Of a stretch of DNA of 64,000 nt, positions 9,789-50,500 are shown in pieces. A program made the translations under genes and the position numbers. The stretch spans positions 171,926,001 through 171,990,000 of the forward strand of contig NC_042997.1 of the NCBI RefSeq assembly GCF_006345805.1, read 5' to 3'. The notes beneath the pieces were generated by a model. That model saw only the letters and a program-made list of their open reading frames with translations, was not told the DNA's origin and made no database searches. Numbering within the stretch: position 1 is the first letter of the stretch; every line of letters begins with the position of its first letter. This DNA is from Octopus sinensis. Its lineage: Eukaryota.

Positions 9789-10342
9789 ATATATAGATAT
9801 GTATGTATCAGACTCAATGTGTATACATTGTTTATAGGCCAGTTACTATGGTTATTCTCCTGAGATAGCATCTCTTATGGACTGGCTGTGTTACAACCAC
9901 GATAAATATCAAAGGGAGATAAAAAATGCCAGCTGTATTTCAGCCTCTTTGGGCCTTTTCAATGGCACATACTCACAGCCAGTCACATGCTTGGATCAGA
10001 ATTCCTAATCTCTATAGGAACAAGTGAATAATACTGATGATGTGAATGGCCAGCTGGTTGAATACTCTTGTCAATGGTGTCATCTCTATGAAAAAGCTGC
10101 AGTGTTCTATTGATGTTAGACAGCCTGTATCATTCTGTTGTCAAGAGCACAATAATGGTATGCTTTTTTTGCTTTAGAGCAGTTGTATACTGTCAACTTA
10201 ACATGACAGTCCCATAAAGGGAATCACACCACCGCTATTTAGCCCTAGGAAGCATCAACGCTTCCTGTCGGCCTTGACACATTTCCTGTGTCCTTATGTT
10301 TACAAGGGGGAGACAAGCACCCCCCTCCAGCTAAGCCTGCAG

Positions 10343-10382
10343 CCAGAGACATGTTTCTGGGTCTTGCTCATCATCAGTCTGG
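10343..10382 (-). ncRNA. Minimal type I hammerhead ribozyme
   Basis: CCAGA-CUGAUGA-UGAG(CAAGA)CCCA-GAAA-CAUG-UC-UCUGG: perfect stem I, canonical core, palindromic ACAUGU stem III, GUC cleavage triplet, one mismatch in stem II. Confidence 0.75.
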
Positions 10383-10697
10383 AGAAGCATGGCTTGTAGC
10401 TGGCTGCAGATACCCGTCTAGACTTTGTAAGCATATATAATTTCAGTGAAGTAAATTCACTGATCACAAAAAATTATAAATATTAAATTTCTAAATATCT
10501 CAGAGAGATATAAGCAGTGGTGGTACGATAGAGCAGTTGTATACTGTCAACTTAACGTGACAGTCCCATAAAGGGAATCACACCACTGCTATTTAGCCCT
10601 AGGAAGCATCAATGCTTCCTGTCGGCCTTGACACATTTTCTGTGTCCTTATGTTTACAAGGGGGAGACAAGCACCCCCCCTCCAGCTAAGCCTGCAG

Positions 10698-10737
10698 CCA
10701 GAGACATGTTTCTGTGTCTTACTTGTCATCAGTCTGG
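10698..10737 (-). ncRNA. Minimal type I hammerhead ribozyme, second copy (stem II degenerate)
   Basis: CCAGA-CUGAUGA-CAAGUAAGACACA-GAAA-CAUG-UC-UCUGG. Confidence 0.6.
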
Positions 10738-12167
10738 AGTAGCATGGCTTGCTAGCTGGCTGCAGATACCTGTCTAGAACTTGTAAGCATATATAATTTC
10801 AGTGAAGTAAATTCACTGATCTCAAAAAAAAAAAAAAATAGAAATATTAAATTTCTAAATATCTAGAAATATAAATATTTCTTTTTTTTTTTTCTTTTGC
10901 TTTGTTTTCTATATATTGCAAACAGGAGCGGACTCTTGCTGTCTCTCTAGCGGTTGGGCATTCGTGACTAGGAATGGGCAGAAATAGCCTGAAACTAAGG
11001 TGGTCTCACAATCCTGTTATCAGCTGGAGGATGGTAGAGATTTGCTCCCTTGCTTGCAATATATACAGGGTGCTGGCTGCACCTATAACCAGCTGGCAGA
11101 TGATCTGCCTGGGGTTAAAACAGTAGTAACATCAAACAGCCATATTGATGTGGCAATTTACTTTACTTGTTAGAACCCATTATTTGCTGCAATAAAAAAA
11201 TTAGGAAGAAAAGTTAGTATTGAGGAAAAGTTACTCAACAACATGCATAATTAATTCAAGCAACCTATGGTAATTAATTAAAAGAATTGTGTTAACATTT
11301 GCATTATTTTCAGTACAACCCTTGTATATTATGTGTGTGTTTGTGTGTGTGTAGGTGTGGCTGTGTGGTTAAGTAGTTTGCTTCCCAAACACATGGTTTT
11401 GGGTTCAGTCTCACTGTGTGGTACCATCTTCAGCAAGTGTTTTTTTACAATAGCCCTGGGCTAACTACAGCCTTATGAGTGGATTTGGTTGACAGAAACT
11501 GAAAGAAGTCTGTTGTATGTGTGTGTGTGTCTATGTGTGTGTGTGCATGTGTGCGTGTGTATTTGTGTGTTTGTGTGTGCATGTTTGTTTGTGTGTGTGT
11601 GTGAGTGTATGGTGCATGTGTACTTGTGTTTGTGTGTTTGCATATGGAGGGTGTATGTGTGTGTGTGTGTGTGTATGTGTGTGTGTATGGTGCATGTGTG
11701 TATATGTGTGTGTGTGTGTGTGCTTGTGTTTGTGCGTTTGCATATGGAGTGTGTATGTGTGTGTGCTTGTGTGTGTGTTGTGTGTGTGTGTGTGTGTGTA
11801 ATTCATTTACAGTATGCTTCAAAGACACATCAGGTCTTTGACAAATATTACTGTGCTTGGAAAGAGGTAACGTTTGATGGCAGGAAGGGTATCCAGCCAT
11901 AGAAAATCTACTTCAATAAACTCTATTCAACCTACGGATATTAAAATGATAACGACAATCACAATGAAGATAATGATGATATATATGTATATATTCATAT
12001 GTATATACATATATATATATATAAACATACATACATATGAATGAGTGATCCATCGACTCCCCTTGATCAATCAGTCTTCGTTACATGAAGTCAGCATAAC
12101 TGGTTTATTATTATTATTATTATTGTTGTTGTTGTTGTTGTTGTTGTTGTTATTATTATTATTGTTA

Positions 12168-20330: not shown

Positions 20331-21210
20331 TATAACATCTATAAAATTTCTGACACCCAGAAATGCAGAACGTGGAAACTGTAACCCATTTGGTAAATGG
20401 ATGTGAAAGCCTTGCACAAAAAGAATACAAGCAACGCCATGATAAAGTTTGTTTGTACCTTCAATGGCTTTTATTTTGTAAATGCTAGTATGAAGTAACA
20501 AAGAATTGGTATGAGCAGGTGCCTAGTAATGTAATGCATGACGAAGGGAAAGCAATGATATTCTGAGATTACAATTTTCTAATTGATAGAGTAATTGCGC
20601 ATCGCTGCCTGAATGTGGTTGTGTAGAACAAGAGAGACAAATGCTGTCAAATCATTGACATAACCATGCCAAATGACATGAATATCTTTAATAAAGTGGT
20701 TTTAAAAAATCACCAAGTACTTCAAACTGAAAGTGGAATTAGAATGACAATTTGGAATACAAGAGGGTAATGAAAAGGTGATATCAGCTGTAATTGGGGT
20801 CATTAGGATCAAAACCCTTGAAACTTCAAGACTTCTTAAAGCAGTTGGGAATACTATTCAAGATTGGTGTCATACAAAAATAAGCCTTTTTAAGTACTGC
20901 ACACATTTTAAGGAAAGTATTACCTGTCTGAGGTTCTTGATGTGTCTTGACAGAAGATTAAATACTCTGGTGCATTTTGCATAATAATTCTTTATACTAT
21001 CCTTTTATTTGTTTCAGTCATTTGACTGTGGCCATGCTGGAGCACCAACTTTAGTTGAAGAAATCGACCCCAGGACTCATTCTTTGTAAGTCTAGCACTT
21101 ATTCTATCGGTCTCTTCTGCTAAGTTATGGGAATGTAAACACATCAGCATCGGTTGTCAAGCAATGGTGGGGGACAAACACAGGCACACAAACATATAAA
21201 TATATATATA

Positions 21211-24200
21211 TGCAAATAATCTTATGATTTGCAACACTAACTTCAGGAAACCTACCAGCCATCTAGTCACTTACCAATCGGGCCAACATACCAGCCAAAT
21301 TGACTACATCCTTACAAGGCAAAGGGAGAGATGGCTGCTTATAAATGCCAAAACCTTCCCAGGTGAAGAATGTACCCCACAACATAGACTGGTAGTTAGT
21401 GACTTTAGGATCAGGACTAGGAGGACAACCAGAAGACGACAAATATGGAGAAGAAGGATCTGGAAGCTTAAAGATCCTGCAAATGGACAGAGATTTAGGG
21501 ACATATTACTTGAAGCCTCTGACGAAGTAGAAGGGGATAGAGCATCACAGGGGGTAGAAGACAGCTGGACGTTTCTAAGGGACAACCTGCTGAGAGCCAC
21601 TGACCAGATCTGTGGCTGGTGCAAAGTCCCCTCTCGACCTAGAATAACGTGGTGGTGGAACAATATTGTAGACAGGGCTATTAGAGAAAAGAGACAGGCT
21701 TGGAAGGTCTGGAAAAATGGGGGTAGCAGGGGATTGTATCAGACTGCCAAAAGAGAAGCTAGGAGACAGGTTTATTTAGCCAGAGGGGAAGCAGATAAGA
21801 AAAAATTTGCCAATGTTCTGCGCCGTGAGGACCAAAGACTGGAGGTGTTTCGTGTTGCAAGACAGTGTGTGAGAGAGAATCGTGATGTGGTAGGAGAGAA
21901 GTGTGTTCGCATGGAAGATGGTTCACTTGCGCTAAATGAGGATGCAAAGAGAGAGGTTTGGAGATGCCACTATGAAAGGTTGCTGAATGAAGAAAATGAA
22001 TGGGATAAAGAGAGTCTGCCGAATGTTGACCCTACAGAGGGACCAGCTATCCGAGTTGATAGTTCCGTGGTAGCTAAGGCAATTAGAAGCATGAAGACAG
22101 GGAAAGCCCCAGGCCCATCAGGAATCACTGCAGAGATGCTCAAAATGTCTGGTAGTGTCGGCTATAGCCTAGTCACCCGTATAGTTAATCAGGTGATACA
22201 CAAAGGGGTCATACCCAATGACTGGTGTAGCAGTATAATAGTCAACTGCTACAAAGGTAAAGGTGATGCCCTAGATACAAATAACTACAGAGGTATCAAG
22301 CTGTTGGACCAGGTGATGAAGGTTACGGAGAGGGTCATAGCCCAACTAATTAGAGAGAGAGTTAGTTTAGATGAGATGCAGTTTGGGTTTGTGCCAGGGA
22401 AAAGTACTACTGATGCTATATTCCTGGTAAGGCAGCTGCAGGAGAAATACCTAGCCAAAGATAAGCCCCTGTACCTGGCTTTTGTTGACATGGAGAAAGC
22501 CTTCGACAGGGTCCCCCGATCCCTTATCTGGTGGGCAATGAGGAAACTAGGGATAGATGAATGGTTAGTGAGAGCTGTGCGGGCCATGTACAGGGACGCC
22601 GCTAGTAGGGTGAGGGTTGGAAATGTGTACAGTGAAGAATTCCGGGTAGAGGTAGGAGTCCACCAAGGCTCAGTACTCAGCCCCCTCCTATTTATCATAG
22701 TCCTCCAGGCAATAACGGAGGAATTCAAGACAGGATGCCCTTGGGAGCTCCTCTATGCTGATGACCTTGCTCTAATTGCTGAGTCGCTATCAGAACTGGA
22801 GGAGAAGTTTCAGGTGTGGAAACAAGGATTAGAATCGAAGGGCCTCAGAGTCAATCTAGCTAAAACCAAAGTCGTAATCAGTAGGAAGGTAGACAAATCA
22901 CAAACACCTTCAGGTAGATGGCCCTGCTCGATCTGTAGAAAAGGTGTAGGTAGAAACTCTATAAGATGCACCAAGTGTAAGCTATGGACACATAAGAGAT
23001 GAAGCAATGTCAAAGGAAGGCTAACTAGGAAGATGGTTTTTGTATGTGGCAGATGCTCAGGAACAATAAACACTGAAAATGCTCTGAGACCAACTTCCGT
23101 CACTTTCCAGGGAGAAAAACTAGAAATAGTTGATAGTTTCCGTTACCTAGGTGACCAAGTCAGCAGCGGGGGCGGGTGTGCTGAAAGTGTAACTGCTAGA
23201 GTAAGAATAGCTTGGGCAAAGTTCAGAGAGCTCTTACCTCTGCTGGTGACAAAAGGCCTCTCGCACAGAGTGAAAGGCAGACTGTATGATGCGTGTGTAC
23301 GAACAGCCATGCTACATGGCAGTGAAACATGGGCCGTGACTGCTGAGGATATGCGTAAGCTTGCTAGAAATGAAGCCAGTATGCTCCGATGGATGTGTAA
23401 TGCGGGTACTCACACTCGGCAGAGTGTAAGTACCTTGAGGGAAAAGCTGGACCTAAGAAGCATCAGTTGTGGTGTGCAAGAGAGACGTTTGCGCTGGTAT
23501 GGTCATGTGGCGAGAATGGATGAAGATAGTTGTGTGAAAAAGTGCCACACCCTAGCGGTTGAGGGAACCTGTGGAAGAGGCAGACCCAGGAAAACCTGGG
23601 ACGAGGTGGTGAAGCACGACCTTCGAACTTTAGGTCTCACTGAGGAAATGACTAGAGACCGAGACCTCTGGAAGTGTGCTGTGCGCGAGAAGACCCGGCA
23701 GGACAAGTGAGTCCATAACCCGTGGCCTTCTACATGGGATGGAGCCAGCCTACGTATGCATACCTTCCCTTCTTGGGACACAAAACTCTACTTGTGAAGA
23801 CGTGATGAGGCAAGTGAGGATCAGAATCGAAATCGATCAATGGAAATTGCGGATGTGCTACCAGTGCCGGTGGCATGTCAAAACTCTGCTTGTGAAGACC
23901 CGTTGAGGCAAGTGACGATCAGAATCGAAATCGATCAATGGAAATCAATCAATGGAAATTGCAGATGTGTTACCAGTGCCGGTGGCATGTAAGAGAACTT
24001 TCCGTTTCGCGACCGTTGCCAGCACCGCCCCGTTTCGTGTCCGTTGCCAGCCTCGCCTGGCACATAAAAAGCACCATCCGTTCGTGGCCGTTTGCCAGCT
24101 CTGTCTGGCACCAGTGCGGGTGGCACGTAAAAAGCACCCACTACACTCACGGAGTGGTTGGCGTTAGGAAGGGCATCCAGCCGTAGAAACACTGCCAGAT

Positions 24201-44277: not shown

Positions 44278-44692
44278 AGGTGGCGAGCAGGCAGAAACAT
44301 TAGCATGCTGGGAGAAATCCTTAGTGGTATTTCGTCTGCCACTACGTTCTGAGTTCAGATTCTGCCGGGGTTGACTTTGCCTTTCATCTTTCGAGGTCAA
44401 TTAAATAAGTACCAGTTATGCACCGGGGTCGATGTAATCGACTTAATCCATTTGTCTGTCCTTGTTTGTCCCCCTGTGTTTAACCCCTTGTGGGTAGTAA
44501 AGAAATAGGTATTTTGTCTGCCGCTGCATTCTGAGTTCAAATTCCGCCGAGGTCGACTTTGCCTTTCATCCTTTCAGGGTCAATTAAATATGTACCAGCT
44601 ACACACTGGGGTCGATGTAATCGACTTAATTCCTTTGTCTGTCCTTGTTTGTCCCCTCTATGTTTAGCCCCTTGTGGGCAATAAAGAAATAA
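44278..44692 (+). mobile_element. SINE family A head-to-tail dimer
   Basis: A full copy is followed by a second starting at ggtattttgtctgccgc; same layout at 50100-50500. Confidence 0.85.
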
Positions 44693-46693: not shown

Positions 46694-46736
<43 letters not shown>

Positions 46737-46740
<4 letters not shown>

Positions 46741-46899
46741 ATCCAAACATGAAAACACAACAACACGAGGATGTGGAACAAGTATAGTGGTATTGGATGC
46801 TCAGGAAAGAAGGAAAGAAGGAGGGTTTAACGTTTCGAGCGGAGCTCTTCGTCAGAATCATAGGTAAAGGAAAGATCCAAAGAAGGGAAGACGGAGGAA

Positions 46900-46938
<39 letters not shown>

Positions 46939-47125
46939 ATCCAAACATGAAAACACAACAACACGAGGATGTGGAACAAGTATAGTGGTATTGGATGCTC
47001 AGGAAAGAAGGAAAGAAGGAGGGTTTAACGTTTCGAGCGGAGCTCTTCGTCAGAATCATAGAGTAGAAGATCATAGGTAAAGGAAAGATCCAAAGAAGGG
47101 AAGACGGAGGAAAAAATATATATAT
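46737..47125 (-). mobile_element. Tandem dimer (198 bp period) of a hammerhead-bearing repeat
   Basis: Two near-identical units separated by (TA)n. Each has CUGACGA-A-GAGC(UCC)GCUC-GAAA-CG-UU (46825-46859 and 47023-47057). Confidence 0.75.
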
Positions 47126-47346
47126 ATATATATATATACACACATCCACACACACATACATACACACACATACATAAGCACATATATATATATGTATAAT
47201 TACACTCTCAGAGTGGTTGGCGTTAGGAAGGGCATCCAGCCGTAGAAACACTGCCAGATCAGACTGGAGCCTGGTGCAGCGTTCTGGCTACCCAGACCCC
47301 AGTTGAACCGTCCAACCCGTGCTAGCATGGAAAGCGGACGTTAAAC

Positions 47347-50099: not shown

Positions 50100-50500
50100 A
50101 GGTGGTGAGTTGGCAGAAACGTTAGCATGCCAGGCGAAATGCTAAGTGGTATTTCGTCAGCCGTTATGTTCTGAGTTCAAATTCCACTGAGGTCAACTTT
50201 GCCTTTCATGCTTTCGGGATCGATTAAAGAAGTACCAGTTACGCACTGGGGTTGATATAATCAACTTAATCCATTTTTCTGTCCTTGTTTGTCCCCTCTG
50301 TGTTTAGCCCTTGTGGGTAGAAAAGAAATAGGTATTTCGTCAGCCGTTACATTCTGAGTTCAAATTCTGTCGAGATTGACTTTGCCTTTCATTCCTTTCG
50401 GGATCGATAATTTAAGTACGAGTTACACACTGGGGTCAATGTAATCAACTTAATTCCTTTGTCTGTCCTTGTTTGTCCCCTTGTGGTAGTAAAGAAATAA
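50100..50500 (+). mobile_element. SINE family A head-to-tail dimer
   Basis: Second unit starts at ggtatttcgtcagccgtt. Confidence 0.85.

Follow-up and report, generated by a model that had tools for sequence, protein, structure and literature searches.

We analyzed a 64,000-nt stretch of the Octopus sinensis genome (NC_042997.1, positions 171,926,001 to 171,990,000; the window), in which two non-coding repeat units with hammerhead ribozyme motifs lie head-to-tail on the minus strand at 10175-10864. The original prediction took them for a retrozyme, a non-autonomous retro-unit processed by its own ribozyme, and its description of the locus largely held. The units have a period of 355 nt, measured from cut site to cut site, and align over 334 nt with 92.5% identity (aligned spans 10862-10510 and 10498-10175). 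Both cores read CCAGA-CUGAUGA-13 nt-GAAA-CAUG-UC-UCUGG and lie where they had been placed (Table 1). Each has a perfect 5-bp stem I, a palindromic ACAUGU and a GUC triplet; the CUGANGA and GAAA boxes and the NUH triplet are present in both copies. Stem II had been described as carrying one mismatch in one copy and as degenerate in the other. Accordingly, the downstream copy keeps three of four pairs (U-A, G-C, A.C, G-C) and the upstream copy one of four (C.A, A.C, A.A, G-C). As stem II of the upstream copy is broken, the window pair is probably weak or dead as a ribozyme. No open reading frame (ORF) of at least 100 amino acids was found overlapping 10175-10864, in line with the earlier statement that no ORF of 60 amino acids or more is listed there, and the GC content of its 2-kb bin is 39.5%.

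The motifs in the window are not conspicuous by themselves. A loose core pattern matched twice in the window, compared with 0.53 matches expected, but 9 of 100 shuffles also reached two, which is not significant alone. Folded in isolation, the motifs did not adopt the active structure (z = -0.55 to +1.58); the 355-nt monomer folded well (z -5.8). The significance of the motif therefore comes from the genome counts and from the covariation across sister families, and not from the pattern in the window.

We searched the whole genome (2.72 Gb) for further copies. The exact core pattern had 557 matches and its reversed control had none. A 35-nt motif near the 3′ end of the unit had 118 matches, also against none in the control. 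The alternative that the unit exists at a single locus is refuted by this dispersed family. In the similarity search with the unit, the best 40 of 3464 candidates were scored. Conservation was measured in 29 copies, which came from 30 loci selected for their similarity after one duplicate had been removed; both window copies are among them. The 12 core columns were more conserved than the copies overall (0.983 vs. 0.939, p = 0.017), as had been proposed for a functional core. The commonest stem II in this set was C-GAG/CUC-A, and not the UGGG/CCCA that had been expected. The U and the C in stem II of the window are decay, the U being at a CpG site. Loop III was AU in 19 copies and UA in ten, and never AA or UU. 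UU was seen in 3 of the 100 core matches listed and GC in one sister family. Since the copies are related and the AU/UA split may go back to a single double change, we attach no probability to it. Each window copy differs from the column majority at about 3% of positions, and three rare substitutions are common to both. They were mutually nearest relatives among the sampled copies (95.8%, compared with 95.4% for the best other). Thus, they came from one template or from a local duplication. Taken by itself, the window copy is an unremarkable, partly decayed representative of a kind already known. Judged by its sequence, the motif is a minimal type I hammerhead of the type found in Penelope-like elements (PLEs), lacking the G10.1-C11.1 feature in this subfamily. 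Among the sequence records carrying the unit, none was listed as RNA, and the four contig sets compared with the locus are blind to strand, ends and circles. One contig with another organism label spans the 3′ junction, with about 27 bases on the side of the element; as this is less than the required 31 bases, it was not counted. For a protein encoded at related loci, the four homologues found all bear the name Octopus.

Collinear sister families range from 92% down to 49% identity to the unit. Among 11 aligned motifs, 10 of the 15 hammerhead pairs showed two-sided changes, including a replacement of C3-G8 by U3-A8, and in stem I four of five pairs did so. The covariation score of the hammerhead was 0.461, compared with 0.217 after shuffling and at most 0.096 after sliding. 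In the aligned part between ribozyme and tail (10 sequences), 22 of 46 predicted pairs covaried. Kinship of the copies inflates all of these counts, though the changes fall between families. The covariation of stem II, which the original prediction had proposed as a check, was found across the sister families. The maintenance of stems I and II by compensatory changes, together with a palindromic stem III, in families of 49-92% identity points to selection on the motif at the RNA level. A variant core, CCGAUGA (U4 to C), with a longer and nearly self-complementary stem III was observed at L208, L207, L206 and L203, which belong to the L211 family.

The ends of the insertions were then mapped. 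The 3′-end set comprised 56 loci (L001-L060, four duplicates dropped) with 81 outer 3′ ends. Of these ends, 36 were at one site (site A), 37 at another 55 nt further on (site B) and 8 elsewhere; none was at the ribozyme cut. There were 25 two-armed loci, with both ends classed in 18. Sixteen were A+B, two were B+B and none was A+A (p = 7e-4). The window locus is itself an A+B two-armed insertion: its 690-nt arm ends at A, and a short arm in inverted orientation ends at B. The inverted arm and a possible, A-rich 9-bp duplication are additions to the earlier description (Table 1). To see whether both arms of an insertion derive from one RNA, we ranked the arms by similarity: within inverted-arm pairs, the partner arm ranked in the top 5% for 11 of 36, in the top 20% for 22 and below the median for two. 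Many flanks are (TA)n as judged by eye.

For the 5′ ends, we used loci selected solely through the 3′ motif (74 anchors in 67 of 70 loci). They are spread from 45 to 426 nt upstream of A, some of the alignment stops being inserts or microsatellite breaks. Of the anchors, 42 pass the ribozyme cut, one stops within 5 nt of it, seven exceed one period and 34 adjoin an inverted arm. As the complementary DNA (cDNA) runs through the ribozyme site, the template must have been uncut, re-ligated or circular. An apparent pile-up of 5′ ends near unit position 105 was rejected; it was explained by LINE (long interspersed nuclear element) inserts and by alignment breaks, and was absent from the motif-picked set. 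Arrays of more than two units were not found in the loci examined.

This anatomy resembles that of PLEs, whose insertions show partial tandems, inverted arms and a one-sided tail (PMC8557442). For a PLE of the anole, priming takes place on both strands, from two sites within the RNA, and ribozyme cleavage is not needed in vitro (PMC11167929). We therefore regard the locus, with a probability of roughly 80%, as an aged two-armed insertion of a 355-nt non-coding hammerhead repeat that likely moves as a non-autonomous PLE, that is, a non-LTR (long terminal repeat) retrozyme. The unit has the testable features of both a non-LTR retrozyme and a non-autonomous PLE, and the proposal of a multi-copy, non-coding, hammerhead-bearing retro-unit related to them is supported. 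In the mechanism we propose, a tandem or circular transcript of the unit would fold into the conserved set of hairpins and be bound by a PLE protein with reverse transcriptase (RT) and GIY-YIG domains, supplied in trans. This protein would nick AT-rich DNA on both strands. Priming of the cDNA would occur within the RNA, from two positions separated by 55 nt, each of them serving one strand, and the result would be a long arm plus an inverted arm with a tail at one end only. Cleavage by the minimal hammerhead would require two copies to be paired via their palindromic stem III. Composites of LINE and unit, described below, would then be copied by the PLE machinery.

Searching for the autonomous partner, we found intact RT and GIY-YIG ORFs of 781 and 775 amino acids in the genome. 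The CxxC linker of these two frames presumably places them in the Neptune group. Such a linker is described for Neptune-group PLEs (PMC8557442). In the GIY-YIG scan, 150 of 5029 candidates were scored, and 30 + 20 loci were compared with the DNA of the unit. Five loci of the PLE families checked carry variant hammerheads with a palindromic stem III in their 3′ untranslated regions (UTRs), four of them with U3-A8. At L091, L081, L098 and L215, U3-A8 replaces C3-G8 (UUGAUAA, UUGAAAA), and a standard CUGANGA search misses these variants. Twelve loci with the same stem III and another stem II matched neither the unit nor the two PLE proteins.

Several observations weigh against the non-autonomous PLE interpretation, besides the inflation of covariation by kinship. 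The ribozyme had been called canonical, which did not hold: 10.1:11.1 was C.A in 23 of the 29 similarity-picked copies, U-A in five, G.A in one and G-C in none, and the pair was held in only 6 of the 11 aligned sequences. G10.1-C11.1 is present in the sister families L253 and L263. The Rfam hammerhead models, suggested earlier as a check, gave no match in the window, neither at the gathering score nor at E up to 10. No DNA similarity was found between the unit and 50 GIY-YIG loci (of about 5000 candidates), so the PLE partner can only be inferred. Only one of nine predicted retrozyme dimers cleaved in a published test (10.64898/2026.07.22.740005). Minimal PLE hammerheads are described as cleaving poorly, even as dimers (PMC4209133; PMC6765202).

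The unit can also be compared with known systems. Like the non-LTR retrozymes of metazoans, it is a non-coding sequence of about 350 nt with a type I hammerhead and low GC content, occurring as monomers and dimers (PMC7229834; 10.64898/2026.07.22.740005) and together with autonomous PLEs. It fits their range (150-450 nt, consecutive units, no ORF, GC below 50%). Unlike them, it forms no long arrays in the octopus loci examined. Its ribozyme seems to be of the minimal, dimer-dependent PLE type, unlike the canonical loop-loop type of coral retrozymes. Non-LTR retrozymes have been proposed to be non-autonomous derivatives of PLEs (PMC7229834; 10.64898/2026.07.22.740005). In the octopus, the link to PLEs comes from insertion anatomy (two 3′ ends, A and B arms), and not from sequence similarity to the pseudo-LTRs (pLTRs) of PLEs. 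With these pLTRs and with the mechanism of Poseidon PAc of the anole it shares the 5-bp stem I, the palindromic 15.1-16.1 segment, partial tandems, inverted 5′ arms, a tail on one side, two internal 3′ ends and the absence of ends at the ribozyme cut (PMC4209133; PMC8557442; PMC11167929). The flanks look AT-rich, as they are there. It differs from the PLEs described there in having no ORF and a tail of about 55 nt rather than 30-40, and from the PLE hammerheads described in a stem II of 3-4 bp without G10.1-C11.1 in this subfamily. It had no sequence match to the PLE families examined in its own genome. Neither such end mapping nor LINE targeting appears in the available text of the two retrozyme papers (PMC7229834; 10.64898/2026.07.22.740005).

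It is also possible, though rather doubtful, that the circle comes first: a dimer would cleave itself twice, the 355-nt monomer would be ligated, and the circle would be copied into new loci. The read-through of the cut and the cDNAs longer than one period could come equally well from a circle or from an uncut multimer. The mutual proximity of the window units and the good fold of the monomer are also consistent with it, and circles have been shown for retrozymes of coral, mussel and axolotl (PMC7229834). However, copying from a circle is at odds with the absence of arrays of more than two units from the loci examined and with the broken upstream stem II in the window. In the dimer L013, the units differ at the palindrome and are 88.6% identical, no closer than random copies (rank 0.59). 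As they differ and are not close relatives, L013 is not one circle copied twice. Moreover, the dominant in vitro template of the anole PLE was uncut RNA (PMC11167929).

An unlikely explanation is that we are looking at nothing but the terminal repeat of some autonomous PLE missed by our searches, the copies being 5′-truncated fragments rather than an element in their own right. All PLE insertion marks are present, most PLE insertions are 5′-truncated, and our searches scored only the top candidates. However, the upstream extensions of the copies enter the tail and the previous unit, or a LINE-derived insert, rather than an RT or GIY-YIG frame. Across families of 49-92% identity, the unit has also kept to a closed 350-nt design while diversifying, and it showed no similarity to the 50 PLE loci compared.

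Two loci of the family shared foreign DNA just upstream of the core. This was a 1.75-kb cassette with a zinc-knuckle ORF1. Among 30 loci found by the 3′ end of the cassette, most run into a hammerhead, be it of this family or of another, or into another cassette copy. Full-length cassettes have host sequence on both sides and a target duplication. At L149 (the older subfamily), the duplication has 12 bp and stops 12 nt before the core. At L342 and L343 (the subfamily of the window), it has 15 and 18 bp and stops 1 nt before the core, and at L211 (a sister family, with empty sites at L207, L208 and L218) it has 16 bp and stops 18 nt before the core. Thus, target duplications of 12-18 bp end 1-18 nt before the core, though the duplicated sequences differ between host families. 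Cassettes also stack in tandem with a duplication between them. In the L211 family they have intact ORFs of 457-463 amino acids. A tandem array of 1.71-kb ORF1-only cassettes, 99.6-99.7% identical and with frames of 457-458 amino acids, was observed at L201 (G000:C5:62288000-62297999), with no hammerhead found near it. It is a young non-autonomous LINE that keeps the whole ORF1.

The ORF1 of the cassette is homologous to the ORF1 of complete LINEs with an apurinic endonuclease (APE) and an RT (23%, E 2e-18), which have the same 3′ motif as the cassette and the same position in sister units. Their ORF2 is intact (1134-1140 amino acids; Exo_endo_phos, RVT_1 and zf-RVT), ORF1 has zf-CCHC, and the closest solved protein to ORF2 is LINE-1 ORF2p (E 2e-61). 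We studied 20 LINE loci from an RT search, chosen mostly by frame length, of which 18 had a locatable 3′ end. Twelve of these ends were followed by a hammerhead core within about 50 nt (11 sister units and one 3′ UTR of PLE type), two led into another LINE copy and four into other sequence. Duplications of 16-18 bp were found at L251-254, L263, L264 and L270. An ORF2 remnant was present in the subfamily of the window at L341. In the whole genome, the LINE 3′ motif was followed by the core pattern within 18-45 nt in 138 cases, against three in the control, with several junction types. No sequence of these LINEs or of the cassette was found in the window, and the target sites of both window units are empty. 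The data show L1-clade LINEs and derivatives with ORF1 alone seated in the 5′ arm of stem I, with duplication of the target, both in the family and in its sisters.

These LINEs appear to target the stem I site. The 12 of 18 ends exceed the share of flanks (>20%) used to recognize a target preference (PMC4494074), the count being inflated by re-copied composites. On the other side, 5 of the 18 LINE 3′ ends had no hammerhead nearby (one tandem copy counted). Only 1 of 19 apparently 5′-truncated cassettes had a duplication at its 5′ end (L140), and no further one was found in a set of 30 loci. This implies that most composites of LINE and unit, and so many of the 138 junction matches, are re-copied passengers and not independent insertions, which also counts against the targeting.

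The cassettes raise another explanation, which we consider very unlikely: the 2.1-kb form with the zinc-knuckle ORF1 would be a parent PLE-like element possessing a Gag-like gene, and the 355-nt unit a product of deletion between short direct repeats. Most cassette copies do lie in the context of the unit, and one described type of PLE has a 3′ hammerhead and, upstream, a Gag-like ORF (PMC8557442). At L215 (G000:C9:56710000-56715800), the ORF1 of the cassette runs into a PLE RT-GIY-YIG frame. However, this PLE part starts at residue 149 of its relative, as expected of a truncated insert, and ORF1 has its homologue in complete APE-RT LINEs with the same 3′ motif and place. Within one host family the duplications are of unequal length and end at different places (12 nt or 1 nt before the core), they separate tandem cassettes, and one 5′-truncated cassette (L140) has a duplication as well. 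L215 may be a chance chimera or a captured ORF1; two further matches of the same score and frame length were seen, which may be copies. It is hardly credible that the motif is a fortuitous resemblance within some ordinary repeat and was never a ribozyme: the lack of an Rfam match, the non-significant loose pattern in the window and the unfavorable monomer fold of the motifs agree with it, but the core is kept with a swap of C3-G8 for U3-A8 in families about 50% identical, with two-sided changes in stems I and II and a palindromic stem III.

LINEs of the Tx1 clade are known to insert into other transposons (Tx1 into Tx1D; Tx1-Mar and SINEU into Mariner-N4_AMi; PMC4494074). Like them, the octopus LINEs have an L1-like zinc-knuckle ORF1 and an APE-RT ORF2, occupy a fixed site of another mobile element with duplication of the target, stack in tandem, have non-autonomous passengers and hitchhike with the host (PMC4494074). 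Their structure and behavior thus suggest that they are Tx1-like. No named Tx1 reference was present among the listed RT homologues. Unlike the Tx1 cases in the available text of that paper, the octopus LINEs have a retro-unit as their host and sit in the 5′ arm of a hammerhead stem I; the sequence that is duplicated varies with the host family while the position relative to the core is kept; and the non-autonomous form keeps a whole ORF1 (457-463 amino acids in young copies) without ORF2. We tentatively suggest that a lineage of L1-clade LINEs tracked hammerhead retrozymes through their diversification by inserting at the 5′ arm of stem I, in a three-tier chain of parasites. If so, its hosts would be only about 50% identical to each other and would include at least one PLE 3′ UTR. 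The LINE would gain transcription from the host and, about 60 nt downstream, a 3′ end cut by the ribozyme; the PLE machinery would offer it a second way to spread. The choice of site would follow the position or structure of the ribozyme, or co-transcription, and not a fixed DNA word. In metagenome contigs, no locus with LINE-hammerhead targeting outside this genome was found.

The repeat annotation of Octopus vulgaris reports active Penelope and L1-Tx1 families, and its main text, as available, does not use the words ribozyme or hammerhead (PMC13282606). A literature search by title and beginning of the abstract, outside Repbase, Dfam and supplements, returned no octopus retrozyme and no LINEs targeting hammerhead elements. 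The octopus families may be catalogued in Repbase or Dfam, and the supplements of PMC4209133, PMC7229834, PMC8557442 and PMC13282606 may list cephalopod motifs or families.

The window contains other elements as well. A second, unrelated dimer with a period of 198 lies in (TA)n at 46706-47138. Its units have a smaller hammerhead-like motif (CUGACGA, GAAACGUU, palindromic ACGU), with cores at 46855-46829 and 47053-47027 (minus strand). Similar motifs were seen at L011, L121 and L126, and the dimer is likely another non-autonomous PLE family. A single hammerhead-like motif of a third family (CUGAAGA, 5-bp stem I, palindromic ACGU) is at 15267-15232 (minus strand). A LINE RT (RVT_1, E 1e-31), with frames of 600 and 235 amino acids split by one stop, lies at 21200-23710 on the plus strand; we take it to be RTE-like, and its DNA did not match the Tx1-like elements. 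A 183-184-nt repeat, presumably SINE-like (short interspersed nuclear element), forms two related tandem pairs, at 44326-44691 and 50148-50485.

Table 1. Parts of the two-armed insertion, in window coordinates.
Feature	Position	Strand	Remarks
Long arm of the insertion	10175..10864	-	about 1.9 periods of the 355-nt unit; ends at 3′ site A without tail
Upstream unit	10529..10862	-	from inside the tail to 3′ site A
Tail, 55 nt	10475..10528	-	flanked by the two 3′ ends favored in the family (A at 10529, B near 10475); probably lies between two start sites of reverse transcription
Downstream unit	10175..10498	-	ends at site A
Hammerhead motif, upstream unit	10698..10737	-	stem I perfect, stem II 1/4; predicted cut between 10703 and 10702
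Hammerhead motif, downstream unit	10343..10382	-	stem II 3/4; predicted cut between 10348 and 10347
Short inverted arm	10859..10899	+	end of the tail (site B), opposite orientation; unit 1-40, 87.8%, E 7e-8
Candidate 9-bp target-site duplication, left copy	10895..10903	-	A-rich, hence weak
Candidate 9-bp target-site duplication, right copy	10167..10175	-	one base common with site A
Empty LINE target site, upstream unit	10734..10756	-	5′ arm of extended stem I; duplicated round LINE-derived inserts at other loci
Empty LINE target site, downstream unit	10379..10400	-	

Hammerhead retrozymes of animals, and the idea that they derive from PLEs, were already known. This study adds evidence from mapped ends that a retrozyme is primed at two sites in the manner of PLEs, and the recurrent insertion of LINEs with intact ORFs at the arm of a ribozyme, across hosts of different sequence. 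The signature of two start sites and two arms, shown in vitro for one autonomous PLE, is now seen on copies of a protein-free retrozyme. It provides genomic evidence on how such a retrozyme integrates, and the role of PLE hammerheads becomes testable on a 355-nt substrate. If the site choice of the LINEs depends on the ribozyme rather than on a DNA word, it would represent a new kind of LINE targeting.

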